A stretch of DNA of 64,000 bases. Source: Thermodesulfobacteriota bacterium (GTDB lineage: Bacteria; Desulfobacterota; Binatia; UBA9968; JAJDTQ01). Under the pieces are notes generated by a model. The model was not told the DNA's origin. It saw only the letters and a program-made list of their open reading frames with translations, and did no database searches. A program made the translations under genes and the position numbers. Location of the stretch: assembly GCA_965116735.1 (NCBI GenBank), contig OZ220712.1:2369680-2433679 (forward strand). Direction: 5' to 3'. Within the stretch, counting starts at the first letter, position 1, and the number at the start of each line of letters is the position of its first letter. Below, one piece after another: positions 2,424-58,795 of this stretch.

Positions 2424-2424
2424 T

Positions 2425-37811: not shown

Positions 37812-37853
37812 GAAACGGTCCGGGATTCCGTATCGACCGGCAACGCGATGCGG

Positions 37854-37883
37854 GCACGGGCGGGTTTGAAACCCGCCCCTACG
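37854..37883. repeat. 30-nt palindromic intergenic element, copy 1 (GCACGGGCGGGTTTGAAACCCGCCCCTACG)
   Basis: Identical 30-mer to 53509..53538. It contains the 21-bp perfect palindrome GGGCGGGTTTGAAACCCGCCC. Confidence 0.5.
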
Positions 37884-43489: not shown

Positions 43490-44128
43490 ATGAAACTCTA
43501 CGGCTACTTCAGAAGCTCCGCGTCCTACCGGGTGCGCGTGGCGCTGGCGCTCAAGGACGTCGACTACGTCCTCCAGCCGGTGCACCTCCGCCGCAACGAG
43601 CAGCGGGCACCCGGCTTTCTGGACCGCAATCCCCAAGGCTTGGTTCCAGCCCTGGAGGACGACGGCTCGGTGATCACGCAATCCCTGGCCATCATCGAGT
43701 ATCTCGATGAACGCATTCCGGCGCCGCCCCTACTGCCGCCTACCGCTGTGGACCGGGCGTGGGTCCGGGCAATGGCTCAGATCGTCGCCTGCGATGTCCA
43801 CCCGATCAACAACCTCCGGGTCCTGCAGTACCTGGAGAACGATCTCGGCCTGGACGACGATGCGCGAGGCGCGTGGGCCAGACGCTGGATCGACGAGGGT
43901 TTTTCGGCCATGGAGGCCATGCTCAAGGACGATTCGCGAACGGGCGCCCACTGCTTCGGGAACCAGCCGACGCTGGCGGACATCTGTCTCGTGCCTCAGG
44001 TGTTCAACTCGCGCCGCTTCGGTCTGGATCTGGCCCGCTACCCGACCCTTGCACGGATCTACGAGAACTGCATGCGATTGCCCGCCTTCGCGGATCAGGC
44101 CCCCGAACGACAACCCGACGCCGAATGA
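43490..44128 (+). CDS. maiA: Maleylacetoacetate / maleylpyruvate isomerase (GST zeta class)
   Basis: MKLYGYFRSSASYRVRVALALKDVDY...NPQGLVPAL matches the MaiA/GST-zeta N-terminus. SD GGGAGG. Confidence 0.8.
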   Translation: MKLYGYFRSSASYRVRVALALKDVDYVLQPVHLRRNEQRAPGFLDRNPQGLVPALEDDGSVITQSLAIIEYLDERIPAPPLLPPTAVDRAWVRAMAQIVACDVHPINNLRVLQYLENDLGLDDDARGAWARRWIDEGFSAMEAMLKDDSRTGAHCFGNQPTLADICLVPQVFNSRRFGLDLARYPTLARIYENCMRLPAFADQAPERQPDAE

Positions 44129-45507
44129 CCCTGACGCCTCATCGGCTGGTGGCTTCCGCCGTCTGCGCCGCCGGGGTGGCGCTGGCCCTGGCGCCGGCAC
44201 CCACGGGGATGCCGGTGGAAATCCTGCCCGCGGCCGCGGTCACGGTGGTGTGCATCGGGCTGTGGGCGACCGCCGTCATACCCGAGTACCTGACCGCGGT
44301 CATCTTCTGCTTCCTTGCCGTTACCGTGGCCGGCGCCCCGCCGGACGTGGTCTTCGCCGGTTTCCAGTCAACCGCGGCGTGGCTCGTGTTCGGCGGGTTG
44401 ATCGTTGCCGCCTCGGTGCAGGCCACCGGCCTCGGAGCCCGTATCGCCACCGCCGCGGTCGCCTACTTCGGCAAGTCCTACCGGGGGTTCCTCTGGCGTA
44501 TCGTACTCACCGCCGCCCTCATGGGCTTCATCATGCCCTCCAACATGGGCCGGGTGCTCGTCATGCTGCCGATCTTCCTGAACATGGGAGAGCGGCTCGG
44601 GTTCGGCCCGGGCAGCAAGGGCCGTGTCGGCATCACCCTCGCCGTGGCGGCCGGCAGCATCTTCCCGAGCTTCGGCATCCTGACGGCGGCCGTGCCCAAT
44701 GTCGTGCTCCTGGGAGCGGCCGAGAGCCTCCACGGAATCAAGATCACCTACGGCGAATTTTTCCTGTTGCATTTCCCGGTCATCAGCATCGTCAATATCG
44801 TGGCGCTTCCCTTCCTGGTCGCGGCCCTTTTCCCGGCCCGGCTCGAACCGGCTTCGGCGCCGGCCGCAAGCGCGCCGTGGACGGCCGCCGAACGCAACCT
44901 GGTGCTGATCCTGGCGGTGACCCTGGCGCTCTGGGTCACGGACCACTGGCACGGGATGTCTCCCGCGTGGATCGCGCTGGGAGCGGGCATTCTCTGTCTG
45001 CTGCCGCGCCTGGGATGCATCCCGCCCACCTCCCTCACGGGCAAGGTCAACCTCGGTCCGTGGCTCTTCATTTGCGGCATCATCGGCATGGGATCGGTGG
45101 TGGTGCACAGCGGGCTGGGCGGCCTGCTGGCCGGCTGGCTGCTGGACCGGCTCCCCATGCAGCCCGGCCACGACCTCTCCAATCTCGCCGCCATGAGCGC
45201 CGTGGGCATGATCATCAGCATGGCCACCACGGTCCCGGGCGAGCCGGTCATCGCCGCCACGCTGGCCCGGGACATCAGCGCCGCCAGCGGCTGGCCCGTG
45301 GCCACCGTGCTGCTGGTGCAGGCCGTCAACTGGACCATGGTGCCCTTCCCCTACGAGCTGCCGCCCATGGTGGTGGCGTCGCGAATGGCCGGGATGGGGA
45401 TCGGTCACGCCACCCGTCTGCTGCTAACCCTCACGCTGCTGGCATGGGTGGTCACGTTGCCGCTTCATTTCGTCTGGTTCCGCCATCTAGGCTACTTCGG
45501 AGGGTAG
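44125..45507 (+). CDS. Integral membrane permease (putative anion/organic acid transporter)
   Basis: Start overlaps the maiA stop (ATGA). About 12 to 14 predicted TM segments. The track ORFs 43707 and 43759 are upstream artefact extensions. Confidence 0.6.
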   Translation: MTLTPHRLVASAVCAAGVALALAPAPTGMPVEILPAAAVTVVCIGLWATAVIPEYLTAVIFCFLAVTVAGAPPDVVFAGFQSTAAWLVFGGLIVAASVQATGLGARIATAAVAYFGKSYRGFLWRIVLTAALMGFIMPSNMGRVLVMLPIFLNMGERLGFGPGSKGRVGITLAVAAGSIFPSFGILTAAVPNVVLLGAAESLHGIKITYGEFFLLHFPVISIVNIVALPFLVAALFPARLEPASAPAASAPWTAAERNLVLILAVTLALWVTDHWHGMSPAWIALGAGILCLLPRLGCIPPTSLTGKVNLGPWLFICGIIGMGSVVVHSGLGGLLAGWLLDRLPMQPGHDLSNLAAMSAVGMIISMATTVPGEPVIAATLARDISAASGWPVATVLLVQAVNWTMVPFPYELPPMVVASRMAGMGIGHATRLLLTLTLLAWVVTLPLHFVWFRHLGYFGG

Positions 45508-45563
45508 GCTACTTCGGAGGATAGGATACTTCGGAGGGTAGGATACTTCGCAGGGTAGGAATA
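45488..45563. repeat. Tandem direct repeat, four and a half copies of the 17-bp unit TAGGNTACTTCGGAGGG, ending in a T-run
   Basis: Units start at 45488, 45505, 45522 and 45539, with a partial fifth at 45556. Unit 1 encodes the last 7 codons of the permease, and its stop codon is the TAG that begins unit 2. Confidence 0.7.
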
Positions 45564-45593
45564 TTTTTTGGCGACCTGACCCGAGACACCGGA

Positions 45594-46316
45594 ATGAGCT
45601 GGGAGATCGGCCTCTACGCTTTCGCCGTGGTGCTTGCGGCCGCGAGCCTGCAGGGAATTACCGGAGCCGGCATGATGATCCTGTCGGTGCCGCCTCTCGT
45701 GGTGGCGATGCCGGCTACGGTGGTGGTGCCCGGCATCGTCCTTCTCTACCTGCCCTTGGGCACCGCCCAGATCATCCAGCTCCGCCGTGACATCGACCGC
45801 CGGCGCCTGGCCACGCTGCTGCTGAGCTCCGCCCCGATGGTTCCCCTGGGCGCCCTGGTCCTGAGGGAGGTGGACACGGTCACGTTGCAGCGGGGCATCG
45901 GTTTGCTGATGATCGCACTGGCGCTGCTGCTGCAGGTGAAACCGGGGCCTCCGTTCTCGCGGGAGCTGCCTCCCTGCGTCGGCACCGGCCTGATCGCCGG
46001 CTTTCTCGCCGCCAGCACTTCGGTGTCCGGTCCGCCGCTGGTGCTGTTCGGGCTCAAGCAGCGCTGGGAACCGGCCCGCTTCCGCGCCACCCTGATCGCC
46101 TACTTCCTGGTGATCTCCGCCTTCTCCCTGCCCTTCTACTGGGAGATGGAGCTGCTCACTGCCGCGGTCTGGTGGTTCGTGCTCTACGGTCTGCCCGGCA
46201 TCGCCCTTGGGTACTTCACCGGCGCATGGCTCCGGGCACGGGTCTCGGTGGCCGCGTTCCGCTGGCTCGCCACCGGCGTGGTGGTCGCCGGGGGCCTCGC
46301 CGCGGCCCTGCTTTGA
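45594..46316 (+). CDS. Sulfite exporter TauE/SafE-family membrane protein
   Basis: Glycine-rich TM helices (LQGITGAGMMIL) typical of DUF81/TauE. Confidence 0.8.
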   Translation: MSWEIGLYAFAVVLAAASLQGITGAGMMILSVPPLVVAMPATVVVPGIVLLYLPLGTAQIIQLRRDIDRRRLATLLLSSAPMVPLGALVLREVDTVTLQRGIGLLMIALALLLQVKPGPPFSRELPPCVGTGLIAGFLAASTSVSGPPLVLFGLKQRWEPARFRATLIAYFLVISAFSLPFYWEMELLTAAVWWFVLYGLPGIALGYFTGAWLRARVSVAAFRWLATGVVVAGGLAAALL

Positions 46317-46435
46317 AGCCAAAACCGGTATCCGGAAGCCCTGATTCAAGGTTGACAACGCCACGGCGCGTTGATAGAAGCGCCAAATCACCCGAGGTCG
46401 GGTGCCCATCGTCAACCATCCGAAGGGAGAGGAAA

Positions 46436-47968
46436 ATGCGAAATCGTTTACGAACCACTGTCCTGGCGCTGTTCGTCGCGGGACTGGCCCTGTGCCTCGC
46501 CACCACGGCGTTGGCGCAGAAGAAGACGCGTATCAGCATCGGCACCACCGAGACCATGGAGACGCACAACCCGTACGGGGACAGCGTCGCCCTGCTCTAC
46601 GGCATCTACACCGAGCTGAGCGGCCCGCTGTGCAAGTTCGACTGGGAGAACGGCAAGTGGGTGCCGGGGCTGGCCAAGAGCTGGACCGTCGAGGACCCCA
46701 ACAACTGGGTCTTCGAGCTGGACCCGGGCTACACGTTCCAGGACGGCTCGCCGGTGACCGCGGACGACATCGTGCACTCCTTCTGGCGTGTGCTGAACGA
46801 CCCCCAGACCAAGCAGATCGCTTCGGTGGCCCGCCCGGTCAAGGAGGCCACCGCCATCAGCAAGCACAAGGTGCGGGTCACCACCAAGAAGCCCACCGCG
46901 CCGCTCCTGGACTTCCTCTGCGACGCGCTCATCATCACCAGCAAGAAGGTCTACGACAAGCACGGCGCCAGGACCGCGGACAGGAAGTTCCACTACGGCG
47001 GCGGCCCCTACGAGCTGGTGGAATTGGTGCCCGGACAGCGCATGGTCACCCGCAAGCGCCCCGATCACCCGGCCGCCAAGCTGAACCCCAAGGCGCCCGA
47101 CGAGATCGTGTTCCGGGTCATGCGCGAGGCCGAGCAGCGGGTGGCGGCGCTCTTGAACGACGAAGTGCAGATCGCGCAGCTCATTCCGCCGCATCTGTTC
47201 AAGACCGTGGACGGCTCCCCGAACCACAAGATCGTGAAAGTCGACTCCGTCGTGATCATGTTCCTGGCCATGCAGCCCAAGCCGCCCTTCGACAAGAAGG
47301 AAGTGCGCCAGGCCGTGTGTCACGCCATCGACCGGGACAAGATCATCAAGACCCTTCTCCAAGGGCAGGCGACACGGCTCGACGGGCCCCTGGGTCCCGG
47401 CCAGTTGGGGTACAACCCGAACCTGAAGACCCGTTACACCTACGACCCCAAGAAGTCGCGTGAGCTGCTGGCCAAGGCCGGCTACCCCGACGGAGGCGTC
47501 GAGGTGGAGTTGCAGACCCCTGTCGGCCGCTACGTCCTGGACAAGCAGGCGACCGAGGCCATGATCCCGATGCTCAACGCGGCGGGCTTCAAGGCCAAGC
47601 TGCGGACGCCGGAGTGGCCTACCCTGTGGGCCAACGTCCAGAAGGGCAAGGTGCCGTTCTTCTACATGGGCCGTGGCGGCGTCGTCGACCCGAGCTCCGC
47701 GTTCCACCAGTACTTCAGAAAGGGCGGCTCGCCGCGGATCGGCTACTCCCATCCCGACATCGATGCGGCCCTCGACGCGGAACAGCAGGAGTTCGATCCC
47801 GAGAAGCGGAATCAGCACCTCACCACCGCTATGGAGCTCATCACCGACCATGCGCCCGCCTGCTTCATGTGGCGGCAGCAGTTCCTGTGGGGCATGAGCA
47901 ACAAGATCGACTACCAGCCCCTTGCCGATTCCCGCATCTACGGCATGGACATCAGCGTGAACCCGTAA
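46436..47968 (+). CDS. ABC transporter substrate-binding protein, family 5 (DppA/OppA/NikA-like)
   Basis: GAAGGGAGAGG SD precedes ATG 46436. Signal peptide MRNRLRTTVLALFVAGLALCLATTALA is followed by an SBP_bac_5 body. Confidence 0.85.
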   Translation: MRNRLRTTVLALFVAGLALCLATTALAQKKTRISIGTTETMETHNPYGDSVALLYGIYTELSGPLCKFDWENGKWVPGLAKSWTVEDPNNWVFELDPGYTFQDGSPVTADDIVHSFWRVLNDPQTKQIASVARPVKEATAISKHKVRVTTKKPTAPLLDFLCDALIITSKKVYDKHGARTADRKFHYGGGPYELVELVPGQRMVTRKRPDHPAAKLNPKAPDEIVFRVMREAEQRVAALLNDEVQIAQLIPPHLFKTVDGSPNHKIVKVDSVVIMFLAMQPKPPFDKKEVRQAVCHAIDRDKIIKTLLQGQATRLDGPLGPGQLGYNPNLKTRYTYDPKKSRELLAKAGYPDGGVEVELQTPVGRYVLDKQATEAMIPMLNAAGFKAKLRTPEWPTLWANVQKGKVPFFYMGRGGVVDPSSAFHQYFRKGGSPRIGYSHPDIDAALDAEQQEFDPEKRNQHLTTAMELITDHAPACFMWRQQFLWGMSNKIDYQPLADSRIYGMDISVNP

Positions 47969-48083
47969 CGCCACGGGCTCACACGAGCGAAGATGAGGGG
48001 CATGCTTCCGAGATCGGAGGCATGCCCCTCTTGATTTGGGAACGGAGGGGCGGTTGCCGCAGGACCGGCGCCGACCCTCGCCA

Positions 48084-48248
48084 CTAGTGTGGTGTCTGGT
48101 TAATTCGCATAATAATATGCGGAGGATTTTTCGTCGTCGGCAAGGCGCGACGACGAGCAGTGGCGGGCACCACGCGAGGAAGAGCAACGCCGCCGACGGC
48201 GAAAAAGACCCGCAGATTATTGTGCGAATTAACCAGACACCACACTAG
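48084..48248. mobile_element. MITE-like nested palindromic element, copy 2 (165 bp)
   Basis: TIR-L CTAGTGTGGTGTCTGGTTAATTCGCATAATAAT and TIR-R ATTATTGTGCGAATTAACCAGACACCACACTAG, one mismatch. The core is about 95% identical to the copy at 20310..20474 but inverted. The TIR sequences differ between copies yet each is self-complementary. Confidence 0.6.
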
Positions 48249-48273
48249 AAGAGCACCAAGCAGGGAGGCCTTC

Positions 48274-49176
48274 ATGAAACCCCGATTCCGCGGCATCTTC
48301 ATTCCGACCCTCACCACCTTCCACGACGACGGCGAGGTGGACTTCGACGTGCTCGGCGAGATGCTGGAGTTCAACATCAGCGCCGGCGTCCACGGTCTGT
48401 TCGTGCTCGGCTCCACCGGCATGGGGCCGGCGATGACGACCGAACAACGCCTCGCCACGGCGGAATTCGTCATGGAGCGCGTGCGGGGCCGGCTGCCGGT
48501 CATCATGCACGCCGGCGCCGCCGACGTGCAGACCACCTGCCGGCTTGCCCAACACTCGCAGAACCTGGGCGTGGATGCCGTCGCCGTGGTGCCGCCGTAC
48601 TACTACACCGACCACACGCCGTGGGAGATTACCGCGCACTACAAGGCGGTGGCGGCCGCGGTCAACGGCACTCCGTTGTTCCTTTACGACAACGTCAAGT
48701 ACTCGGGATGGGCCTTTACGCCGGCCACGGCCAAGGCCCTGCAGCAGGAAGTGCCGTCGCTGTGCGGCATGAAGGCGAGCTACTACGCCCAGGGACCGCT
48801 GATGGGCTATCTGGAGGCCATGCCCGAGGACTTCGCGGTCATGTCGGGCAACAGCATCGATCTCCTGCCGGCCACGCCCCACGGGCTGAGCGGCGCCATC
48901 CCGCCCCTGACCAGCGCCATCCCCGAGATCTGCGTGGCGCTGTGGGAGGCCCTGGAGCGAAGAGACTACGAGCAGGCGATTCCGCTGCAGAAGAAGGCCG
49001 ACGACTTCGGCCGGACCATCGGCCGGCTGGGGCAGCGCTTCGGCCGCAGCGCCCATCGTGAAGCCATGCGGGCGCGGGGCTTCAGGATCCAGCGCTACCC
49101 GCGCTGGCCTTCCGAGGAGCTTACCGAGGAAGCGATGCAGACCGTCGCCGACGCCTTGAAGGCCACCGGCGTCTGA
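48274..49176 (+). CDS. Dihydrodipicolinate synthase-family lyase (DapA/NAL family)
   Basis: IPTLTTFHDDGEVD...GLFVLGSTGMG and the TIM-barrel DapA family. SD GGGAGG. Confidence 0.85.
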   Translation: MKPRFRGIFIPTLTTFHDDGEVDFDVLGEMLEFNISAGVHGLFVLGSTGMGPAMTTEQRLATAEFVMERVRGRLPVIMHAGAADVQTTCRLAQHSQNLGVDAVAVVPPYYYTDHTPWEITAHYKAVAAAVNGTPLFLYDNVKYSGWAFTPATAKALQQEVPSLCGMKASYYAQGPLMGYLEAMPEDFAVMSGNSIDLLPATPHGLSGAIPPLTSAIPEICVALWEALERRDYEQAIPLQKKADDFGRTIGRLGQRFGRSAHREAMRARGFRIQRYPRWPSEELTEEAMQTVADALKATGV

Positions 49177-49197
49177 CGGCCCGCGCGACGAGCAAAC

Positions 49198-49629
49198 TCA
49201 GGCCTTCTTTTCGGCGGGGGCGGCCTTCGGCGGCTCGAGGTCCCAGCCCTGGGTGGACATGTCCATGATGATACCGTGAGGACCCCGCACCTTCTGCTCG
49301 AAGTAGAAGCTGTGGTGCGAGCCCACGGTGTCGCCGAGCAGTTCCGCCTCCGTCCCCTCCAGCCGTGTTTTGGCCTCCTTGAGGTCGTCCACCTGGAACC
49401 CCATGTGATGGAGCCCCTCGTAGCTGGCCCCTCCCACCATGTCCGCGGCCTCGTCGGAAGGATAGTTCAGGAAAGCGAAGTTGATGTGCCCGTCGGAGAG
49501 GAAGACGCCCCCGCCACGAGGCGAGTCCGGCACCTTCTTGACGAACTTGAGACCGAACACCTTCTGGTAGAACGCGGCGGTCTTTTCCGGGTCCTTGGTG
49601 GCGATGGCGATATGCCTCAATCGTGCCAT
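49198..49629 (-). CDS. VOC-family protein (glyoxalase/bleomycin-resistance fold)
   Basis: MARLRHIAIATKDPEKTAAFY... SD AAGGAGAGG. Confidence 0.8.
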   Translation of the reverse strand: MARLRHIAIATKDPEKTAAFYQKVFGLKFVKKVPDSPRGGGVFLSDGHINFAFLNYPSDEAADMVGGASYEGLHHMGFQVDDLKEAKTRLEGTEAELLGDTVGSHHSFYFEQKVRGPHGIIMDMSTQGWDLEPPKAAPAEKKA

Positions 49630-49678
49630 GGTTCCTCTCCTTCTCTTTCGTGCGTGTTTTCGACTGAACCGGACGCGG

Positions 49679-50389
49679 TCACTCGACGGCCTCCATGGCC
49701 CGGGCGATGCCGCCGAGAAACACCTGCCAGAACTCCAGCGACTGCCGCGCGGCTTCGAGAATGCCCTCCCACTCGACATCCGTCGTGGCGTAGTTGGCCA
49801 ACAGCTCCATGGTCTGGCCCTTGTGGTCGGTATCGGCCTCGCGGTGCAGCTTGAAATTGGGAAGTTGCTCCAAGGTCAGCCCGAGGTCCTTTGTCCAGCG
49901 CTCCTGGGCGCGGGTCTGGTGCGCCCCGCCGGGAATGATGGGGTCGAGGTTGACCCGCTCCAGCACCGCCACGCCGCCGAGCCCTTCCAGCCACGACAGG
50001 TTGAAGGCCAGCCAGCTCCAGCCGCAGATGGCTGCCCGGGTGGTGGGCAGCGGCTGCGCGTGGTGCACCTCGTCGGCGCTGAGGCCCACGGCCTCGCCGT
50101 GCCGCACCCACAGGGTGTAGTGGTCCGAGCCGCAACGCGGGTCGAACAGCATCTCCTCGGTCTCGTGAGCGAGGAGTTCCTTCTTGACCTCCATGTGCGG
50201 ACAGCGCGCGATCAGGTAGGCCCAGGCCGAGCGCCTCCCGCGCACGAACAGCCCGAACTGCCGCGCGATGATCTGCGCCCGCCGCGGAGTCAGCCGCATG
50301 TCGTAGAACTCCTGGACCTCGGGTTCGGCGAACGTGTCCCGTGTCAACTGGTTCAGTGACTCGTCGTACCGTGCTACCGTCGCATCCAT
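49679..50389 (-). CDS. Heme-oxygenase-like diiron oxidase (HDO), CADD/PqqC/TenA-like, paralog 1
   Basis: HREADTDH is an HxxxDxxH diiron motif, with the helix LLAHETEEMLFD. SD AAAGGAG. Confidence 0.7.
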   Translation of the reverse strand: MDATVARYDESLNQLTRDTFAEPEVQEFYDMRLTPRRAQIIARQFGLFVRGRRSAWAYLIARCPHMEVKKELLAHETEEMLFDPRCGSDHYTLWVRHGEAVGLSADEVHHAQPLPTTRAAICGWSWLAFNLSWLEGLGGVAVLERVNLDPIIPGGAHQTRAQERWTKDLGLTLEQLPNFKLHREADTDHKGQTMELLANYATTDVEWEGILEAARQSLEFWQVFLGGIARAMEAVE

Positions 50390-50402
50390 CCCGTTGCTCC
50401 TT

Positions 50403-51119
50403 TCAGCCGTCCACCGGTATGCGCTCCATGGCCTCCAGCACGCCGGCGCGATAGATGGTCATGAGTTCCATGGATTCCCTGACGGCGCGCAGCGCCTCCT
50501 CCTGCAACGGCCCGGTGGCGTGCTTCTCGAGATCGGGCAGGAACATGTCGCTGTGCTCCTCGTCGGCCTGGGAGTGGACGTCGAAGTTGGGCATCTCCTT
50601 CATCTTGAAGCCCATGTCCTCGCTCCAGCGCCGGCCCATGCGGGTGGAGTGGCCGCCGCCGTGGTCTCCCAGCAGGCGGTCGTCGTTGCACCACTCGGTC
50701 ACCGTCAGCGCCGCCAGCCCCTCCAGCCAGGGCTTCTCGCGGGTGATCCAGCCCCAGGCGTAGAGCACCGCGCGGGTGGTGGGAAGGGGGTCGGCGTTCA
50801 GGATGTCCTCCGGCTGGAGTCCCACCGTCTTGCCCTGGTTGAGGATCAGGGTGATGTGGCCGTGCTCGCTGAACTCGTCCTTGATCACCTCGCCGTACTC
50901 GTGCTGCAGGATCTTCTGCTTCACCGACCAGACCGGGCAGTTCCCGGACACGTGCGCCCAGCAATCGCGGCGGTGGCGTATGAAATGGGCCAGTTCCCGG
51001 ACGATCACCTGGGCGCGCAACGGCGTCTGCTTCAGGTCGAAGTAACGGGTAACGACATCGGAAGCCGAATGCTCCCGCACGATATCGCCGATGGCTTTGC
51101 GCCACTCGTGAACTTCCAT
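50403..51119 (-). CDS. Heme-oxygenase-like diiron oxidase (HDO), CADD-like, paralog 2
   Basis: HSQADEEH motif (HxxxDxxH) with ILQHEYGEVIKDEF. Overall collinear with Chlamydia CADD. SD AGGAGGG. Confidence 0.7.
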   Translation of the reverse strand: MEVHEWRKAIGDIVREHSASDVVTRYFDLKQTPLRAQVIVRELAHFIRHRRDCWAHVSGNCPVWSVKQKILQHEYGEVIKDEFSEHGHITLILNQGKTVGLQPEDILNADPLPTTRAVLYAWGWITREKPWLEGLAALTVTEWCNDDRLLGDHGGGHSTRMGRRWSEDMGFKMKEMPNFDVHSQADEEHSDMFLPDLEKHATGPLQEEALRAVRESMELMTIYRAGVLEAMERIPVDG

Positions 51120-51161
51120 GCTCGATCCCTCCTGACCCGTCTCGCCGAAGCGCGACGCGAA

Positions 51162-52727
51162 TCAAAACCCGATGGCACAGCCGTCCTTGCGCGGATCCGA
51201 CCCGCCCATGAGCACGCCGGTCTCCGGCTCGATGGCGACGGCGTGGGCGCCGCCGAAACTCTCGGGCGTCGCCGACACCACGCGGTGGCCGCGCGCATCC
51301 AAGCCGCTTAGGGTGCCGGACGCAACGCCCGGCTCCAGCGCCACCTCCAGCCCCGACAGGTGGTTGAACCGCGGCGCCGCCAGCGCCTCCTGCGCGTCCA
51401 TGCCGAAATCCACCACGTTGGCGATGATCTGGGCCTGCACCTGGGCCTGCACGTGACCGCCCTTGAGCCCCACCACCAGCACCGGCCGCCCGTCCCGGCA
51501 CACCATCCCCGGCATCAGCGTGTGGCTGCAACGCTTGTGGGGGCCGAGGCAGTTGGGGTGCCCTTCGTCGAGACAGAACATGTGGCCGCGGTTCTGGAGC
51601 ACGATGCCGGTATCCTCCACCGCCACGCCCGAGCCGAAGCCCATGAACAGGCTCTGGATGAACGAGACCCGGTTGCCTTGGCCGTCGGCCACGGCCACGT
51701 ACTCGGTGTCCCCACCCAGCGGGGCCGCGTCCACGCGCGCCGCCGCCTCCTCCATGGCGATACCGGCCCGGAGCGCGCCGATGCGCGCCTCGGCCGCCAG
51801 GTCCCGCCAGCTCACGGTCATGCTGTCGCGGTCGGCGAGGTAGAGCTCGCGGTCGGCAAAGGCGCGCTTCTTGGCTTCGATGAAGAGGTGGAGGTGGTCA
51901 GCGCCGTTGTGTTCCAGGGAGCCCAGGTCGTAGCCCTCCAGGATGCCGAGCATCTCGAGCGCCACGAACCCTTGCGTGGCCGGCGGCAACTGGTACACCT
52001 CGTGGCCGCGGTAGGACGCGTGGATGGGTTCCACCCACTCCGAGGCGTGCTCCTCCATGTCCCGCGGGCTGAACGCCCCGCCCAGCTTCGTGGAGCAGCG
52101 CACGAACTTCTCCGCCACCTCGCCGCGGTAGAAGTATTCGGCGCCGCCCTCGGCGATGCCGCGCAGCGTGCGGGCGAGATCCGGCTGCCGGAAGATCTCT
52201 CCCGGCCGCGGCGCGCGTCCGTCCACCAGGTAGGCCTCGGCCGCTTCCCGGTTCTTTCGGAGCTTGCCCTCCAGGCCGCGCCACTCCTCGCTGGTGAAGG
52301 CGCTCACCGGAAAGCCTTCCTCGGCATAGCGGATGGCGGGCTCCAGGACCGCCGCCAGCGTGCGCGTGCCGTGAGCCGCGAGCAACGTCTCCCACCCGTG
52401 CACCGCGCCGGGCACCGTCACCGAATGGATCCCGGTCTGCGGCACCACGTCCAGGCCCTGCTTCCGGAAAGCCGTGGCATCGGCGCCGTAGGGGGACCGG
52501 CCGCTGGCGTCCAGGGCCTTCATCTCACCGGTCTCGGCGATGTAGAGGAGCGCGAAGGCGTCGCCGCCGACGCCGATGGACATGGGTTCCAGCACCCCCA
52601 GCATGGCCGCGGCGGCAACCGCCGCATCCACGGCATTGCCGCCCTCGGACAGGACCTGGACGCCCACCAGCGAAGCGAGGCGCTGGCTACAGGCGACCAT
52701 CCCATTCCTGCCCATCACTGTACCCAT
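51162..52727 (-). CDS. ggt: Gamma-glutamyltransferase
   Basis: GGNAVDAAVAAAAML...GVGGDAF and a C-terminal Thr nucleophile region, typical of GGT. Confidence 0.9.
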   Translation of the reverse strand: MGTVMGRNGMVACSQRLASLVGVQVLSEGGNAVDAAVAAAAMLGVLEPMSIGVGGDAFALLYIAETGEMKALDASGRSPYGADATAFRKQGLDVVPQTGIHSVTVPGAVHGWETLLAAHGTRTLAAVLEPAIRYAEEGFPVSAFTSEEWRGLEGKLRKNREAAEAYLVDGRAPRPGEIFRQPDLARTLRGIAEGGAEYFYRGEVAEKFVRCSTKLGGAFSPRDMEEHASEWVEPIHASYRGHEVYQLPPATQGFVALEMLGILEGYDLGSLEHNGADHLHLFIEAKKRAFADRELYLADRDSMTVSWRDLAAEARIGALRAGIAMEEAAARVDAAPLGGDTEYVAVADGQGNRVSFIQSLFMGFGSGVAVEDTGIVLQNRGHMFCLDEGHPNCLGPHKRCSHTLMPGMVCRDGRPVLVVGLKGGHVQAQVQAQIIANVVDFGMDAQEALAAPRFNHLSGLEVALEPGVASGTLSGLDARGHRVVSATPESFGGAHAVAIEPETGVLMGGSDPRKDGCAIGF

Positions 52728-52767
52728 GATGCTCCTGAAAGCCCGTTCCGAGCGCGGTCGCGCGCCC

Positions 52768-53466
52768 TCAAGCCGCCCGGTCCTCCGGCACCTCCATCAT
52801 CGCCGACCCCAGCGCTCCCCGGTACGCCCGATCCAGCGCCAGGCAGTCCCGCGCCGCCCGGATGATGAGGGCGCCGGTGTCGGCGTCGCGCACGTACTTC
52901 TCGAACACCGGGTCGAACATGTCCGAGTGGCCGATGTCCGCGGTCATGTGGAGCTGGGTGTTGGCGTCGAGCTTCTCCACCGAGCCGACGATCTCACGCG
53001 CCTTCTTCATGGCCATGCGGTGGGTGAAGCCGCCGCCCTTGACGATCTCGTTGTTGTTCTTGCGTTCGGTGGTGTGGTTGACCATCAGCGCCTCGATCCA
53101 CGAGCGCGTGGAGCACAGGTGGAACCACGCCCAGAACGCCGCCCGCGCCCCCGGCAGAAGGGTGGCCTCGTCCGCGGCCGCGGCCATGTCCTCGTCGGTC
53201 AGGTGCGCCGCGCCCAGCCGCTCGTCGAAGATCAGCTCGTCCTTCTCATGCTCCCAGACGGCCCGCTTCACGTCCAGCGGCGCCTTGGCCCCGGCCACCG
53301 CCCAGCAGTCGCGCCGGCTCTTGATGTAGTGGGGGTAGTGGAGATCGAGAACGGCCTGACGCGCCGGGGTGAGGCGGACGCCGAAGATGCGCCGGTATTC
53401 CGCGCTCTCGAAATGCCGGTTGACCATGTCGTCGACGACGGTGCGCGCTTTCGTCCACTCGCTCAT
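52768..53466 (-). CDS. Heme-oxygenase-like diiron oxidase (HDO), CADD-like, paralog 3
   Basis: HMTADIGH motif (HxxxDxxH) with AVWEHEKDELIFDE. SD GGAGG. Confidence 0.7.
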   Translation of the reverse strand: MSEWTKARTVVDDMVNRHFESAEYRRIFGVRLTPARQAVLDLHYPHYIKSRRDCWAVAGAKAPLDVKRAVWEHEKDELIFDERLGAAHLTDEDMAAAADEATLLPGARAAFWAWFHLCSTRSWIEALMVNHTTERKNNNEIVKGGGFTHRMAMKKAREIVGSVEKLDANTQLHMTADIGHSDMFDPVFEKYVRDADTGALIIRAARDCLALDRAYRGALGSAMMEVPEDRAA

Positions 53467-53508
53467 GGGTACCTCCGATTCGGATGGATCCGCCGGCGTG
53501 GACCCGCG

Positions 53509-53538
53509 GCACGGGCGGGTTTGAAACCCGCCCCTACG
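53509..53538. repeat. 30-nt palindromic intergenic element, copy 2
   Basis: Identical to 37854..37883. It lies in the leader region upstream of HDO paralog 3. Confidence 0.5.
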
Positions 53539-53567
53539 TCCAGGGCTCGCACGCTGCCGTTGCCGGT

Positions 53568-53906
53568 TCAGACGGGCCAGCCGTGCTCGGACACGTCCAC
53601 CCGGTTCTCCTCCGGATCGGTGATCCAGCTCTCCGCGACGGCGCCGTAGGTGTTGGCGTTGGCGGTGGCCTTCACGGACTCCTCGACGGCCTTGACGCTG
53701 TCCACGACGAATCCGAAGTGGTGGATTCCGTAGGGCAGGTTCGGGCTGCTGATCAGCGCCACGTCGACGTGCCCGTCGGAGAGGTAGATGGTGCCGTTGG
53801 GTCCCCGGCTCTTCTCCTCCAGACCGAAGTGCTCCTTGTAGTAGTCCGCCACCTTGTCGCGGTCGTGGGTGTTGATGGCGATGTGTCGTATCCTGGGCCG
53901 TGCCAT
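53568..53906 (-). CDS. Small VOC-family protein
   Basis: MARPRIRHIAINTHDRDKVADYY... SD GGAAGGAGA. Confidence 0.8.
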   Translation of the reverse strand: MARPRIRHIAINTHDRDKVADYYKEHFGLEEKSRGPNGTIYLSDGHVDVALISSPNLPYGIHHFGFVVDSVKAVEESVKATANANTYGAVAESWITDPEENRVDVSEHGWPV

Positions 53907-53946
53907 GGGTATTCTCCTTCCTGACGGATCGCCTCGGGAGGCGTTG

Positions 53947-54969
53947 TCAGTTTCCGATAATGTTCCTGAGCTTGACCTTGACCGCGGGCGAGGTGGACAG
54001 CACGCGCTTGACCTGGGCCGCCACGTCGTCCGCCGAGACGTAGTCGATGACCATCCTCGTCTTCTTGGCGAGGGCCAGGAACTCCGGGTCTTCCAGCGTC
54101 GCCTTGAAGGCCCGGCGCAGCACCTCGACGCGGTCGGCGGGGGTCTTGGGCGGCGCGGCGAACGGGCGGAAGAAGCGGTACTGGGCCATCCACGCGTTGA
54201 ACGCCTCCATGTCCTCGGCGGCCTTGATGAAGTCGGTGTACTTGGGCAGGCCCTTCACGCGCGGGTCGTCGGAGTCGCCCTGTATGAGCACCGGGATCAG
54301 CCGGCCGTCGCCCTTGGCGTTGAGCATGTCACGGGCGGTGATCTTCATGGACACCCACTGCCAGCAGGCGCCGTCCACCTCCCTCCGGGTCATGGCGGCG
54401 CGAATGCCCGCCGTGCCCTGGTAGCCGGGCACCAGCTTCACGTTGGCGCCGATCAACTGCTTGAGGATCCTGGGCTGCTCGCGGGTGCTGCTGCCGGCCG
54501 CCCCCATGGTAATGGGCTTCTTCGACGTCACCAGGTCCTGGAGCTTCTTGACGCCGCTGAAGCCCATGAACGCGCACACCGGCATGCCCACGCTGGGCGC
54601 CCCGATCCAGTGGAACTTGCCGGCGTCGAACTTGATCCCCTCGGTGCCCATGGTCTGTTCCATGACCAGGCCGCTGATGAGCATGGCGAAGGTCAACCCG
54701 TCGGGTTTGGCGACGTTGTAGAGGTAGTTGGCGGCGATGAGGCTGCCGGCCCCCGGCATGTTCTGGACGATGAGGTTGGGCTTGCCCGGCAGGTGCTTGG
54801 GCATGTGGCGCGCGATGGCGCGCGCGTAGGTGTCGTAGCCGCCGCCCGGAGACGTGCCGACGATGAGCCGCAACGTCTTGCCGGTGTAGTCCGGCGCCGC
54901 GTGAGCCGAGGAGAGCCAGCACAACGAAGCGGCGACTACCAGACAACCGAGGGTTCCGATCCTGTTCAT
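53947..54969 (-). CDS. TctC (Bug-family) tripartite tricarboxylate transporter substrate-binding protein
   Basis: SD GGAGGAG precedes the ATG at 54969. Signal peptide followed by the TSPGGGYDTYAR motif. Confidence 0.85.
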   Translation of the reverse strand: MNRIGTLGCLVVAASLCWLSSAHAAPDYTGKTLRLIVGTSPGGGYDTYARAIARHMPKHLPGKPNLIVQNMPGAGSLIAANYLYNVAKPDGLTFAMLISGLVMEQTMGTEGIKFDAGKFHWIGAPSVGMPVCAFMGFSGVKKLQDLVTSKKPITMGAAGSSTREQPRILKQLIGANVKLVPGYQGTAGIRAAMTRREVDGACWQWVSMKITARDMLNAKGDGRLIPVLIQGDSDDPRVKGLPKYTDFIKAAEDMEAFNAWMAQYRFFRPFAAPPKTPADRVEVLRRAFKATLEDPEFLALAKKTRMVIDYVSADDVAAQVKRVLSTSPAVKVKLRNIIGN

Positions 54970-55164
54970 GAGAGCTCCTCCCCACGCGTTGCAGCGCCGC
55001 AAGGTACAAGGCGGCGCATAGCCTGTTTTCCGGTCTCCCTCCCATTTACTCCCCTTCGGTGTTGCGGTTCAACCCTGGCGGGCGGCCGGGAGTTCGCGCC
55101 GCCGGGACGGCTGGTGTATAGGATCAGGGGCTCGTGACCCCCATCGATCTCAAGGGAGGGAGAC

Positions 55165-56082
55165 ATGGACAAGATACATTTCCCCTACCGATCCGGCAGC
55201 CATCTCGCGTTCCTGCACGTGGCGGCGGAGTCCGGCTCCTGGGAGAGACACGGTCTGGACGTGGAGTACGACGTCTACATCAGCTCGGAGGATGCCCACA
55301 AGCATGTGGCCGACGGCAGCGTGGAGTTCGTCGGCGGCAACCACGTCTCCACCTACGGCGCGCGCACGCGCGGCGACCAGTGGCTCTACCTGGGGCAGAC
55401 CGTGAGCCTTCTCGACCACCGGCTCGTGGTGAGGGCCGACTCGGGTATCGAGGGTCTACCCGATCTCAAGGAGAAGGTGGTGGCCACGCGCGGCAACCAC
55501 CCGGGCCTCAACACCTGGCTGTTCCTGAAGCAGAACGGGCTCGACCAGGACCGCGGCGACGTAACGCTCGAAACGATTCGCGGCGCCGCCACCTGGGAGG
55601 CGGTGCGGGACGGCAAGGCCGACGCGGCGCTGGTCAGCCCGCCGGCCGACGTCTTCGCGGAGCGCGCCGGCCTCCGTGTCATCGCCGTGGACCCGCTGCC
55701 CATGGTCTGGTTCACCACCATGTCCAGCGGACGAAAGTTCGTGGACGCCCATCCCGACATCGTCGAACGCTTCCTCAAGGGAGCGTGCCAGGGCATTGCC
55801 TACTTCAAGACCCACCGGCAGGAGTCCATCCGCATCATACAGGAAAAGCACAAGGCCGAAGGGGAACTGGACCTCGAGGCGGCGACCCGCCTGTGGGAGA
55901 GCCTGTCGAAGATCCTGAGCCCGAAGCCCTATGCCTCGTTCCAGGCCGTGGGCAACGTCTACGAACTGGCCAAGCGCAAGGACCCGGCGGCCGCGGAGGT
56001 CGAGCCCACATCCCTGTGGGACTATCACCACCTGCGCCGGATCGACGACAGCGGCTTCATCGACAGCCTGTACCAAACGTGA
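55165..56082 (+). CDS. NMT1/THI5-like substrate-binding-domain protein
   Basis: SD AAGGGAGGGAGAC. SsuA/NMT1-like fold motifs. No signal peptide. Confidence 0.65.
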   Translation: MDKIHFPYRSGSHLAFLHVAAESGSWERHGLDVEYDVYISSEDAHKHVADGSVEFVGGNHVSTYGARTRGDQWLYLGQTVSLLDHRLVVRADSGIEGLPDLKEKVVATRGNHPGLNTWLFLKQNGLDQDRGDVTLETIRGAATWEAVRDGKADAALVSPPADVFAERAGLRVIAVDPLPMVWFTTMSSGRKFVDAHPDIVERFLKGACQGIAYFKTHRQESIRIIQEKHKAEGELDLEAATRLWESLSKILSPKPYASFQAVGNVYELAKRKDPAAAEVEPTSLWDYHHLRRIDDSGFIDSLYQT

Positions 56083-56175
56083 TCAAGGGCATGGCGGACA
56101 GCCGCGGGCACGGGCGGAACGCGACCCGGCGAGCCGATGGCGCCCCATGTCCCCCGGCGCCGGCACGGAGAACAC

Positions 56176-57213
56176 ATGAATGACCCGACCACCGTGCTGG
56201 TCACGGGCGCTGGCGGTTTCATCGCCAAGCACGTGGTGCTGGAGCTGCTGGCGGCCGGCTATGGCGTGGTGGGCTCGGTGCGGTCGGATTCGCGCCGGGA
56301 CGAAGTCCTGGCGGCGGTGCCGGCGCATCTCCCGTCCCGCCGGGACCTCGGCCAACGCCTGCGCTTCGTCAAGCTGGATCTCTCCAGCGACGCCGGCTGG
56401 CGCGAAGCCATGGCGGGCGTGGACGTGCTGATGCACACGGCGTCGCCCCTTCCCATGGCGCAGCCGAGAGACGAGAACGACTTGGTCCGGCCCGCGGTCG
56501 ACGGCACCTTGCGGGCCCTCGGCGCCGCGCGCGCGGCGGGCGTCCGGCGCGTGGTGCTGACCTCCTCGACCGCCGCGGTGACGAACCGGAGACCCGGGAA
56601 TGACAAGGAACGCTTTGACGAGTCGGACTGGAGCGACCCGGCATGGACCGGGATGACGCCCTACTCGAAGTCGAAGACCCTGGCCGAACGCGCGGCATGG
56701 GACTTTGTCGACGACCGTGCGCCGGAAATCGAACTGACCACCATCAACCCTTGTCTCGTCCTCGGCCGCCCCGTCGACGACTTCTACGGCACCTCGCTGC
56801 GCGTAGTGGAAAGGCTGCTCCGAGGGAAGGACCCCCTGCTTCCCAAGGTGGGCATGGGGATCGTCGACGTCACCGACGTCGCCCGCATGCACGTGCGCGC
56901 CGTGACGGCGGCGGGCGCGCCAGGGAAACGGCTCATCGGGGCCGCGGAGTTCATGTGGATTGCGGAGATCGCCGAGATCCTGAAGGCGGCCTACCCCGAA
57001 CGAAGGATCCCGCTGCGGACGGCGCCCGATTTCCTGATCCGCCTCGCCGGCCTCTTCGACCGCTCCATCCGCTCCATCGTCCCGCTGCTCGGCAGGCGCC
57101 AGGAACTGGACAGCTCTCGCGCCCGAGCGCTGCTGGACATGGACTTCATCCCCGCCGCCGAGAGTGTCCGGGCGGCAGGCCGCTACATCATGGAGCGCGG
57201 ACTGGCCGGCTAA
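56176..57213 (+). CDS. NAD-dependent epimerase/dehydratase (extended SDR)
   Basis: VLVTGAGGFIAKHVV Rossmann motif and a YSKSK catalytic motif. Confidence 0.85.
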   Translation: MNDPTTVLVTGAGGFIAKHVVLELLAAGYGVVGSVRSDSRRDEVLAAVPAHLPSRRDLGQRLRFVKLDLSSDAGWREAMAGVDVLMHTASPLPMAQPRDENDLVRPAVDGTLRALGAARAAGVRRVVLTSSTAAVTNRRPGNDKERFDESDWSDPAWTGMTPYSKSKTLAERAAWDFVDDRAPEIELTTINPCLVLGRPVDDFYGTSLRVVERLLRGKDPLLPKVGMGIVDVTDVARMHVRAVTAAGAPGKRLIGAAEFMWIAEIAEILKAAYPERRIPLRTAPDFLIRLAGLFDRSIRSIVPLLGRRQELDSSRARALLDMDFIPAAESVRAAGRYIMERGLAG

Positions 57214-57261
57214 CGCCGGCACCCCTGGTCAGTCCGGTCTGGCGCTCGCGCTCAATTCCTT

Positions 57262-58296
57262 TCACTGCTTGGCGTAGACGATCTCCTTGTACTTGGCGAG
57301 CAGCTCCGGCGGCGCCCCGTAGAGGTCGGTGACAGTCTTCTCGATGGTCTCCGGAGAGGCCGGAGAGATGACGAGGTTTTGGCGCTCGGCATTCTTCAGG
57401 AGTTCGGGGTTGCTCAGGGTGTCCATGAAGGCCTTGCGCAGGATGGCCACGCGGTCGGGGGGCGTGCCCGGAGGCAGCGCGAAGAGGCGCAGGAGCTTCA
57501 TGGTGCTTATGAAAAAGTCCGCGATCCGTTGCTGCTCGGCGTTGAGGTTGAGATCCTTGAGCGTGGCGATGCCGGGGATGGGCTTGAGCCGCGGCTCCTC
57601 CCCCATGGACAGGATCGGGCGTACGAGGCCGCTCTTGATGTAGCGGCGGTAGTTGCCCTGCATGGTCTGCTGGGACATGACCCGCGCGTCCAGCTCCTTC
57701 CGCTCCATGGCTGCCATGACGTTGGCCGTGCCCCGGTAGCCCATGATCGCCTTGATGGGATAGCCCAGGTGGCGGAGAAACAGCGTGGCCGCGGTGGATG
57801 CCGAGCCCCTGCCCGTGGACCCGGCGTGAAGGGGCTTCTTCAAGTTCTTGAAGTCTTCGAAGGTCTTGACGGGAAGGTCGCTGCGGACCCACAAAACCTC
57901 CGGAAGGCTGCCGATGGCCGGATCTCCGAGCCAAATGAATTTCCGCGGGTCGAACCTGACGGACGGGTCTCCAACCACGCCATCGACCAGCGAGCCGGCA
58001 TTGAACACGACGACGGTGAGGCCGTTGCCCGGCTGCATGGCATAGACACGGTTGGCGGCGGACTTGCTCCCGGCTCCCGGCATATTCATCACCAGCACCG
58101 ACGGATTGCCGGGCACGTGCTTGCTGAGGTACCTGCCCAGGAGCCGGGAGAACGTATCGAAACCGCCTCCGGGACTGTAGCCGACGATGATGCGGATGGT
58201 CTTGCCCTTGTAGAAGGGCGCGTCCGCCGCCCAGGTCGTCCCCGCCAGCATCAAAAGCGCTGCAAAACCGATGACTATGGTACGAAATGCTTTCAT
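57262..58296 (-). CDS. TctC (Bug-family) substrate-binding protein, third copy
   Basis: Signal peptide followed by YSPGGGFDTFSR. SD AAGGAG. Confidence 0.85.
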   Translation of the reverse strand: MKAFRTIVIGFAALLMLAGTTWAADAPFYKGKTIRIIVGYSPGGGFDTFSRLLGRYLSKHVPGNPSVLVMNMPGAGSKSAANRVYAMQPGNGLTVVVFNAGSLVDGVVGDPSVRFDPRKFIWLGDPAIGSLPEVLWVRSDLPVKTFEDFKNLKKPLHAGSTGRGSASTAATLFLRHLGYPIKAIMGYRGTANVMAAMERKELDARVMSQQTMQGNYRRYIKSGLVRPILSMGEEPRLKPIPGIATLKDLNLNAEQQRIADFFISTMKLLRLFALPPGTPPDRVAILRKAFMDTLSNPELLKNAERQNLVISPASPETIEKTVTDLYGAPPELLAKYKEIVYAKQ

Positions 58297-58381
58297 TGGA
58301 ATCTCCTTCCCGTGGGAGTTCCGGGTCGTTCGCCGAAGACGACCGACCGTGGTGTCAACGCGCCGGGGTTGCCCGGCGCCG

Positions 58382-58795
58382 TCAGATTCCGGCCTTACCC
58401 TTGATCTTGTCCAACAGCCGCACCGCCACCTCGATGTCCTCTTCCATCGTGCGGCCGCTCACCCCTATGGCCCCCACCATGGTGCCATCCTTGTCCTTGA
58501 TGAGCACCCCGCCGCCGATGGACGTGAGGTTCGGATCGCCATAGGCGGCGATGCCGCGGGTGCCCACCATCTTTTCGATCTCCACCGAGTCCCGGCCGAA
58601 CCAAACCGCGGAGTATCCCTTGTTGTGAGACAGGACGCTGGAGCGGTAGGGCGCGCCGTCCATGCGCGTGTAGTGCAACAGCTCCCGGTGGGCGTTCAGC
58701 ACCGCCCAGGATACCGGACGCCCGGTCTCGTTCGCCAGCTCGGCAAGCAGCTCGCCCGAAGCTTCGTGAATCACCGTGTGCGAAAGGTCTGCCAT
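58382..58795 (-). CDS. GlcG/HbpS-like heme-binding protein (DUF336)
   Basis: GGGVLIKDKDGTMVGAIGVSG motif. Start placed at ATG 58795, which has an AGGGAGG SD, rather than at the upstream TTG. Confidence 0.75.
   Translation of the reverse strand: MADLSHTVIHEASGELLAELANETGRPVSWAVLNAHRELLHYTRMDGAPYRSSVLSHNKGYSAVWFGRDSVEIEKMVGTRGIAAYGDPNLTSIGGGVLIKDKDGTMVGAIGVSGRTMEEDIEVAVRLLDKIKGKAGI

Follow-up and report, generated by a model that had tools for sequence, protein, structure and literature searches.

What might three diverged copies of one oxidase do side by side with a gamma-glutamyltransferase (GGT)-family protein, two small VOC-fold proteins, and a solute-binding protein? The question is raised by a seven-gene operon in a 64,000-nucleotide stretch of DNA (hereafter the window; contig OZ220712.1 of assembly GCA_965116735.1, positions 2,369,680 to 2,433,679) from a Thermodesulfobacteriota bacterium of the Binatia. 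An earlier annotation made from the letters of the window (the original prediction) had proposed that three of its genes encode heme-oxygenase-like diiron oxidases (HDOs) which, together with the GGT, process a gamma-glutamylated amine or aromatic substrate. Herein, we find that (i) the three HDOs are true paralogs and probably two-metal (diiron) oxidases, (ii) the gene cluster is conserved as a unit, with a core made up of HDO paralogs and the small VOC protein VOC112, not of HDO and GGT, and (iii) the GGT is unlikely, judging from its altered pocket residues, to act on a classical gamma-glutamyl conjugate. With a confidence that falls a little short of even, we favour the reading that the operon is an O2-dependent catabolic module for an imported anionic, N-containing, amide-bearing small molecule. 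Its genes, in order of transcription, are as follows:

53947..55002, minus strand: TctC/Bug-type periplasmic solute-binding protein (PF03401), first gene of the operon
53568..53906, minus strand: VOC112, a 112-aa VOC (glyoxalase/dioxygenase-fold) protein (PF00903)
52768..53466, minus strand: HDO3, 232 aa, paralog class B (BLASTP to its paralogs)
51162..52727, minus strand: GGT-family N-terminal-nucleophile (Ntn) amidohydrolase, 521 aa (PF01019, TIGR00066)
50403..51119, minus strand: HDO2, 238 aa, paralog class A (PF14518)
49679..50389, minus strand: HDO1, 236 aa, paralog class E (PF14518)
49198..49629, minus strand: VOC143, a 143-aa VOC protein (PF00903), last gene of the operon

All seven genes (49198-55002) are co-oriented, with intergenic gaps of 40, 101, 40, 42, 13, and 49 nt from TctC to VOC143. 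An AGGAG-like Shine-Dalgarno sequence precedes the start of each, in keeping with the ribosome-binding sites claimed by the original prediction, and Pfam confirms the GGT, both VOC proteins, and TctC that it had described as accompanying and bracketing the HDO genes. GC content at the third codon position is 0.81-0.95 in the operon genes, which fits their being real. The start of VOC143 was corrected; the open reading frame (ORF) had been listed as 193 aa, and a Shine-Dalgarno-preceded ATG at 49629 gives the 143-aa form, at residue 3 of which the Pfam match begins. For TctC, the likely start is the ATG at 54969, with GGAGGAG upstream, yielding a 340-aa protein with a signal peptide. A promoter scan returned 0 promoters, and terminator predictions did not rise above chance level.

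Are the three oxidase-like proteins what they were taken to be? Their mutual similarity is far above chance (by BLASTP, E = 9e-56 and 35% identity for HDO1 versus HDO2, E = 1e-31 and 32% for HDO2 versus HDO3, and E = 1e-25 and 27% for HDO1 versus HDO3), in agreement with the proposed diverged paralogy of three minus-strand genes. Each also carries the HxxxDxxH motif assigned to it (HREADTDH at residues 182-189 of HDO1, HSQADEEH at 182-189 of HDO2, and HMTADIGH at 173-180 of HDO3), and upstream of it the expected E/H-rich stretch, which takes the form of an H-E-x2-E-x3-D-x6-H segment in all three. In a family profile, D83, H90, E144, H182, D186, and H189 (HDO1 numbering) align to E81, H88, E142, H174, D178, and H181 of CADD (1rcw), the first metal-ligand carboxylate being Asp in this family and Glu in CADD. 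These six positions are invariant in 215/215 distinct homologs (three classes, about 85 loci). HDOs are defined by a three-His/three-carboxylate (3H/3C) set of ligands (PMC13108848), and such a set is present on the core helices by alignment to CADD; the CADD-like diiron layout of the original prediction is thus supported at the level of sequence. Also invariant among the 215 homologs are R52, R53, W56, K69, H75, E76, E79, W133, G154, and G155, while W124 is nearly so (one Tyr in 215) and position 160 is Arg or Lys. The four conserved basic residues (R52, R53, K69, and R160) suggest an anionic substrate.

HDO2 was modelled with AlphaFold2 on an alignment of 40 sequences; the model is all-helical and of high predicted quality (predicted local distance difference test [pLDDT] score 92.6; predicted template-modelling [pTM] score 0.89), and is consistent with the seven-helix heme-oxygenase-like fold. 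When the model was searched against the PDB with Foldseek, CADD (8va9) ranked at the top (E 3.5e-7; template-modelling [TM] scores 0.73/0.80), followed by SSO2700, PqqC, Sden_3740, BesC, TenA, FlcD, and UndA, all at 12-21% identity; Foldseek probability was 1.00 to CADD, SSO2700, PqqC, BesC, FlcD, and UndA. Structure prediction, which had been suggested as a check, hence speaks for the proposed family. The only softer segments of the model lie around residues 71-90 and 181-190, i.e., both ligand-bearing stretches. Metal-binding helices of HDOs are known to be flexible (PMC13108848), with which these soft segments would fit without proving it. Profile searches, likewise suggested as a check, gave a more divided answer: HDO1 (58.4 bits) and HDO2 (49.3 bits) pass the 28.9-bit cut-off of PF14518 (Haem_oxygenas_2, "iron-containing redox enzyme"), and HDO3 has no Pfam match. 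A profile search of the PDB returned no sequence-level match to SznF, UndA, BesC, AetD, HrmI, FlcD, or RohS.

Which named relatives could lend the family a function? By fold, the closest characterised relatives are the self-sacrificing para-aminobenzoate (pABA) synthases CADD and NePabS (1rcw, 8va9, and 9pj4), and the profile match to NePabS 9pj4 (2e-9 to 6e-9) makes them the closest by sequence profile too. Identity to CADD is, however, only about 16%, and the CADD-type model TIGR04305 scores 42.1 bits, 27 bits, and no match for the three HDOs against a cut-off of 200. A sacrificial residue of CADD is Tyr27 (PMC9522330); the residues aligned with it in the window HDOs are Asp, Asp, and Gly, with a 1-2 residue shift possible at 16% identity, and CADD Lys152 aligns to a nearly invariant Met. 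Unlike CADD, the family contains the H-E-x2-E segment and, as an additional conserved insertion, GG-x4-R, and the operon has several paralogs and no folate gene context. CADD-type pABA synthesis was rejected as an identity on the TIGR04305 scores, the replaced Tyr27 and Lys152, and the missing folate context.

The best profile match among solved structures (1.4e-15 to 2.3e-15) is SSO2700 of Sulfolobus solfataricus (4lqx, a TENA/THI-4 domain protein), with a TM score of 0.78 to the HDO2 model and about 20% identity; this protein is itself uncharacterised. At 322 aa, it is about 85 aa longer than the HDOs, and the match spans chain residues ~128-301 only, leaving its N-terminal ~125 residues unmatched by the HDO profile. 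The fluopsin C pathway resembles the operon in another respect, in that more than one HDO (FlcD and FlcE) is encoded together for a single pathway. FlcD is a fold match to the HDO2 model without detectable sequence-profile similarity, and its pathway is biosynthetic, with no link to VOC, GGT, or binding-protein genes.

Many homologs are named "PQQ biosynthesis protein C" by JGI, and PqqC (1otw) has the heme-oxygenase-like fold in common with the HDO2 model (TM 0.77) as well as a weak, partial profile match to the HDOs (4e-3 to 9e-3). Could the proteins then be PqqC-like oxidases that work without metal, or have this fold yet serve a non-enzymatic role in iron binding or stress protection? PqqC is metal-free and needs pqqABDE neighbours. 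No pqq genes lie near the HDOs, which have VOC, GGT, and binding-protein genes beside them instead; no NCBIfam PqqC model matches at E<=0.01; and PqqC does not show the strict conservation seen here at six ligand positions of the CADD type. Embedding of the genes in an operon with hydrolases and binding proteins also argues for a role in metabolism. We thus consider this explanation very unlikely, and PqqC itself was rejected as an identity.

Thiamine-pyrimidine salvage, in which TenA-like hydrolases would be partnered by a deformylase-type amidase and by binding proteins of the ThiY-like (NMT1-family) kind, would account for the TenA structures among the fold matches, for PF03070 (TENA/THI-4) scores of 30.2 and 33.4 bits (cut-off 22), and for the NMT1-family binding proteins and M20 ArgE/DapE-type hydrolase encoded in distantly related clusters. 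The PF03070 match, however, covers only profile positions ~52-132 of 210 and scores below PF14518. No Cys is invariant among the three paralogs, yet the full His/carboxylate metal set is. An Rfam search found no riboswitch (for thiamine pyrophosphate [TPP], window positions 47500-58500 at E<=1 and 7 related loci at gathering score), and three to six paralogs per cluster would be unexpected for a single salvage step. Of the explanations considered, this is the least probable, bordering on the negligible. Two outcomes had been named as counting against the original prediction, namely that the proteins classify as ordinary TenA thiaminases and that the cluster is not kept as a unit; neither was found, since the HDOs are not TenA and the cluster, as detailed below, is conserved.

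The HDO family is small, uncharacterised, and a distinct clade. HDO2 has 663 homologs at E<=1e-5, nearly all metagenomic, and among 1.84 billion representative proteins the family accounts for 263 clusters at E<=1e-3 and 21 at E<=1e-30; an exact-sequence database look-up of HDO2 returned no record. Homologs that bear a name have either a generic label or the JGI PqqC label (including those of loci L001, L003, and L084-L086), which is probably wrong and could inflate PQQ-pathway calls in surveys of Binatia. A 523-aa metagenomic protein (P0149) is a tandem HDO-HDO fusion; it is only a weak hint of HDO pairing or heterodimers, because its subfamily is more remote and differs in the third-helix motif.

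How far does the operon hold together across genomes? The nearest loci come from metagenome-assembled genomes labelled Binatia or "Deltaproteobacteria." The gene order TctC-VOC112-HDO3-GGT-HDO2-HDO1-VOC143 is kept in 21 close Binatia loci (one of which, L015, is without the GGT gene), with HDO1 82-97% identical across them, and synteny in this close clade reaches well beyond the operon. Distant loci, in which class-A proteins are 60-65% identical to HDO2, come from other Binatia assemblies and a few labelled Verrucomicrobiota, Eisenbacteria, Methylomirabilota, or Terriglobales. Counts were made with stop-to-stop ORFs and phmmer in the 21 distant loci where >3 kb flanks the HDO genes on either side; a gene caller based on third-codon-position GC overlooked numerous genes where GC is lower. 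Of these loci, 17/21 encode two or more HDO paralogs and 16/21 a class-B (HDO3-type) paralog. In 18/21, an HDO gene has a co-oriented 112-aa VOC gene (ortholog score >140 bits) no more than 1.5 kb away, making VOC112 the most constant partner of the HDO genes; a GGT gene is found in 9/21 (about 43%) and absent from 12/21, and is thus an accessory member. All counted genes of each distant cluster are on one strand. The conservation as a unit expected by the original prediction is thus borne out by the close loci and by fixed paralog sets in the distant ones.

Clustering divides the HDOs into classes A (HDO2-type), B (HDO3-type), C, D, and E (HDO1-type), with 68-86% identity within and 30-58% between classes. 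The order A(A)-D-C-B recurs in many distant loci, and the smallest form consists of VOC112 with A and B. Class A is the most widespread. Class B comprises 49 distinct sequences from 48 loci, all with the ligand positions kept, and class E (22 loci) is confined to the close Binatia clade, where it always directly follows class A. The fixed classes and recurring order indicate that the unit is old and that its paralogs are not interchangeable, a pattern that would be expected of sequential enzymes or of subunits of a complex.

These same counts raise the possibility that the HDO and VOC112 core alone is functional, with GGT, TctC, VOC143, and the other neighbours being unrelated genes of dense catabolic regions. 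The sparse occurrence of the GGT gene in distant loci and its loss in L015 would be explained in this way; these loci abound in genes for TctC- and NMT1-type binding proteins, and close-clade synteny far beyond the operon is expected of near relatives. On the other hand, the operon runs on one strand throughout with gaps of only 13-101 nt, its GGT gene sits between HDO genes, and a specialised GGT subtype, marked by the motif LQNRGH[ML]F, accompanies HDO clusters in close and distant lineages alike. We accordingly regard a functional unit restricted to this core as unlikely.

What, then, might the GGT-family protein contribute to the catabolic module that we favour? Profile models confirm its family (PF01019, 494 bits; TIGR00066, 405.5 versus a cut-off of 357.85), and its best PDB match (4e-120) is the YwrD-like "cephalosporin acylase" 2nlz. 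The nucleophile Thr341 aligns to E. coli Thr391, and Gly423-Gly424 of the oxyanion hole to Gly483-Gly484. Residue 4 is the counterpart of residue 20 in the E. coli chain 2e0w_A, taken here to be the signal-peptide-free (mature) protein, so that the window GGT, which lacks an N-terminal hydrophobic leader, has no room for a signal peptide. In E. coli GGT, the alpha-amino and alpha-carboxylate groups of the gamma-glutamyl moiety are bound by Asn411, Gln430, Asp433, and Ser462/463 (PMC8062742). Here, Q430, D433, S462, and S463 correspond to R380, M383, H402, and T403, and the Asn411 position is F or L. In 35/35 cluster-linked GGT copies, from close and distant lineages, Arg stands at the Gln430 position and Met or Leu at that of Asp433, and each copy carries the LQNRGH[ML]F motif. 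The 2nlz protein shares the NRGHxF and HT substitutions, with His likewise at the Ser462 position.

Loss of Asp433 abolishes transpeptidation and introduces glutaryl-amide (class IV cephalosporin acylase) activity, and YwrD is intracellular without an assigned role (PMC8062742). The window GGT is assigned to the cytoplasmic YwrD/class IV cephalosporin-acylase type. With the nucleophile and oxyanion hole kept and Q430R and D433M/L substituted, its probable target is an amide with no free alpha-amino group in the acyl portion. The proposed processing of a gamma-glutamylated amine or aromatic compound is therefore weakened, given a YwrD-like GGT without a signal peptide, with Gln430 and Asp433 replaced, that is accessory to the cluster. 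A weaker PDB match (7.5e-45) is 5hft, the oxamate amidohydrolase HpxW. HpxW uses the GGT fold to hydrolyse a small omega-amide in a catabolic pathway; it is much more distant from the window GGT than is 2nlz.

The VOC proteins both exceed the PF00903 cut-off of 20.6 bits (VOC143, 52.9 bits; VOC112, 32.4 bits) and fall in one BLAST cluster. Their NCBIfam matches lie far below cut-offs, and sequence comparison of VOC112 with the PDB gave marginal or generic matches only. VOC143 is present in all close Binatia loci. MboB, the mangotoxin partner protein, was tried as an analogue of the VOC protein and rejected because it is a flavin/Fe2S2 reductase.

TctC scores 37.3 bits against PF03401 (cut-off 27), and the sequence at its N-terminus, MNRIGTLGCLVVAASLCWLSSAHAAPDY, has the look of a signal peptide. 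Among solved structures, it comes closest to a terephthalate-binding protein, BugD, and Bug27, at only E~1e-7, and its gene occupies the same position in the close Binatia loci. In distant loci, genes for signal-peptide-bearing NMT1/SsuA-type binding proteins are interleaved with the HDO genes. Other recurrent neighbours there encode xanthine-dehydrogenase-family Mo hydroxylases, UbiD decarboxylases, Amidohydro_2 pairs, dienelactone hydrolases, a bicupin, a second VOC protein, and split TPP decarboxylases, as well as amide hydrolases, including an M20 enzyme of the ArgE/DapE type and a deacetylase resembling PuuE. The Pfam-annotated genes in eight distant loci and the 18 scanned genes of the window include none for a nonribosomal peptide synthetase (NRPS), polyketide synthase (PKS), ATP-grasp enzyme, or gamma-glutamyl ligase. 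The catabolic reading rests on these interleaved genes for secreted binding proteins, on degradative-type neighbours, and on the lack of NRPS, PKS, and ATP-grasp genes. An organosulfonate, phosphonate, or purine theme was considered from the NCBIfam matches of neighbours (sulfo/phosphonopyruvate-decarboxylase-like split TPP enzymes, a PhnS-like binding protein, and PuuE-like and XdhA-like proteins) and set aside; we have not built on these hints because all fall far below cut-off.

Might the operon make a compound rather than degrade one? As a biosynthetic cassette, its HDOs would N-oxygenate or fragment a gamma-glutamyl-carried amine or amino acid, and the GGT would release a bioactive product. 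Characterised HDOs do act in natural-product and cofactor biosynthesis, often on amino acids, the FlcD/FlcE pair of the fluopsin C pathway offers a precedent for two HDOs together, and the window GGT passes the NCBIfam gamma-glutamyltransferase cut-off. However, neither the operon nor its annotated distant versions show a gene for a gamma-glutamyl ligase, an ATP-grasp enzyme, an NRPS/PKS, or an exporter, and genes for secreted uptake proteins are interleaved with those of the HDOs. Moreover, the alpha-amino-binding Asp433 and Gln430 are replaced in every GGT copy, and more than half of the distant clusters lack a GGT altogether. This makes a biosynthetic role quite unlikely in our estimation.

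Returning to the catabolic module, the secreted TctC-type protein would capture a carboxylated substrate for uptake. In the cytoplasm, each of the three HDOs would assemble an Fe/Fe or Fe/Mn site from Asp83, His90, Glu144, His182, Asp186, and His189 (HDO1 numbering) and hold the anionic substrate through Arg52, Arg53, Lys69, and Arg160. With O2, the HDOs may then carry out successive or complementary oxidations (hydroxylation, N-oxygenation, or C-C/C-N cleavage), the products of which the small VOC proteins would convert. Finally, the GGT-family Ntn hydrolase would cut an amide without a free alpha-amino group; candidate substrates include N-acyl compounds of the glutaryl or succinyl type and omega-amides, for example the oxamate or maleamate that opening of an N-heterocyclic ring would yield. 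The metal binding, O2 use, catabolic role, step order, and substrate class in this scheme are proposals, built on observed gene content and order, paralogy, heme-oxygenase-like fold, ligand conservation, cluster conservation, and an altered GGT pocket.

Several points weigh against such a scheme. About a dozen HDOs have been characterised, nearly all in natural-product or cofactor biosynthesis (PMC13108848). The operon itself encodes no reductase or ferredoxin for the HDOs, and HDO3 is linked to the family through paralogy to HDO1 and HDO2 only. No TctA/TctB membrane partner was found within ±10 kb among the scanned neighbours; genes for Bug-type binding proteins often lie apart from tctA/tctB. 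Synteny within the close clade is by itself weak evidence because the 21 loci are near relatives. Every match of a neighbour to a named enzyme is below its curated cut-off, and the neighbouring enzymes are suggestive only, given how plentiful such genes are in Binatia genomes; with binding-protein and aromatic-catabolism genes so abundant there, part of the recurrent neighbourhood may be background.

A bolder form of the proposal, which we hold to be possible though doubtful, is that the operon represents the first catabolic HDO system, with up to five ancient, fixed paralog classes, possibly acting as hetero-oligomers with a dedicated VOC partner, in a new O2-dependent breakdown route that ends with a GGT-fold enzyme. 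There, an anionic N compound would be attacked, e.g., through ring hydroxylation or cleavage of an N-heterocyclic carboxylate or, alternatively, through C-N/C-C scission of an N-acyl compound, leaving an amide to be dealt with last by a re-purposed amidase of the GGT fold.

Three further features lie within or next to the operon:

53508..53538: palindromic repeat of 31 bp with a GGGCGGGTTTGAAACCCGCCC core, in the VOC112/HDO3 gap
55165..56082, plus strand: NMT1/SsuA-fold protein (PF09084), divergent neighbour
48271..49176, plus strand: dihydrodipicolinate synthase (DHDPS)-family gene, tail-to-tail with the operon and outside the unit

The divergent NMT1-like protein scores 50.8 bits against PF09084 and is without a signal peptide. 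The first in-frame start after a stop codon is at 55165, its MDKIHFPYRS start is kept in 8 orthologs, and a search of the PDB gave no sequence relative. An ortholog (450 bits) is encoded ~5 kb from a GGT gene in distant locus L081, and a link between the NMT1-like gene and the operon is possible. The NMT1-type proteins of distant HDO clusters are secreted, unlike that of the window, which may be a cytoplasmic enzyme or ligand binder rather than a transporter component. The DHDPS-family gene was considered as an operon member and dropped, because it is convergent and conserved among close relatives only; sequence comparison of its product with the PDB gave marginal or generic matches.

The 31-bp palindrome has an exact second copy at 37853-37883, between a TctC gene and an amidohydrolase gene, and in both intergenic gaps it resembles a hairpin element of the repetitive extragenic palindromic (REP) type. 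The copy at 53508-53538 has no T-run downstream and is not predicted as a terminator. A 109-bp inverted repeat, 91% identical between intergenic copies at 20338-20446 and 48112-48220 (the latter just upstream of the DHDPS-family gene), could be a small repeat of mobile or regulatory nature. Convergent with the HDO operon and syntenic in the close Binatia clade is a co-directional plus-strand gene set at 43490-47968, encoding a glutathione S-transferase (GST_N/GST_C), an SLC13/CitMHS-type permease, a TauE/SafE-family membrane protein, and a family-5 binding protein, which hints at organic-anion or sulfonate handling nearby. Elsewhere in the window, adjacent ~505-aa genes at 31839-33348 and 33364-34873 have 84% DNA identity, indicating a recent tandem duplication; both proteins begin MSDHYDVIIIGGGSGG, an N-terminus apparently of the FAD-binding type. 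Positions 1-5400 form a low-GC stretch (0.55 at 2-4 kb) with small minus-strand ORFs and a suspected integrase (357-aa ORF at 4212-5285) directly beside a tRNA-Val gene (5318-5394), and look like an integrated mobile element or prophage remnant.

The superfamily is thus a known one; the HDO clade, its fixed multi-paralog architecture, the VOC partner, and the apparently degradative setting are undescribed in the literature searched. No pathway of such composition was found there, as the original prediction had anticipated, nor was anything found on HDOs linked to gamma-glutamyl chemistry or to a glyoxalase in a gene cluster, or anything relevant on catabolic HDOs; a 2026 review of HDOs contains neither "glutamyl" nor "glyoxalase" (PMC13108848). 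Almost every HDO characterised to date has revealed new oxidative chemistry (PMC13108848), and the operon is a well-founded lead both for new chemistry of this kind and for the GGT family's YwrD-like orphan branch.

Identification of this family corrects a recurring, probable mis-annotation of its members as PqqC by JGI. If the proposal is true, HDO enzymology would gain its first catabolic role along with an architecture of multiple paralogs, the YwrD-like orphans of the GGT family would receive a function, and a gap would be filled in the metabolism of the Binatia, an uncultured lineage known here from metagenome-assembled genomes only.

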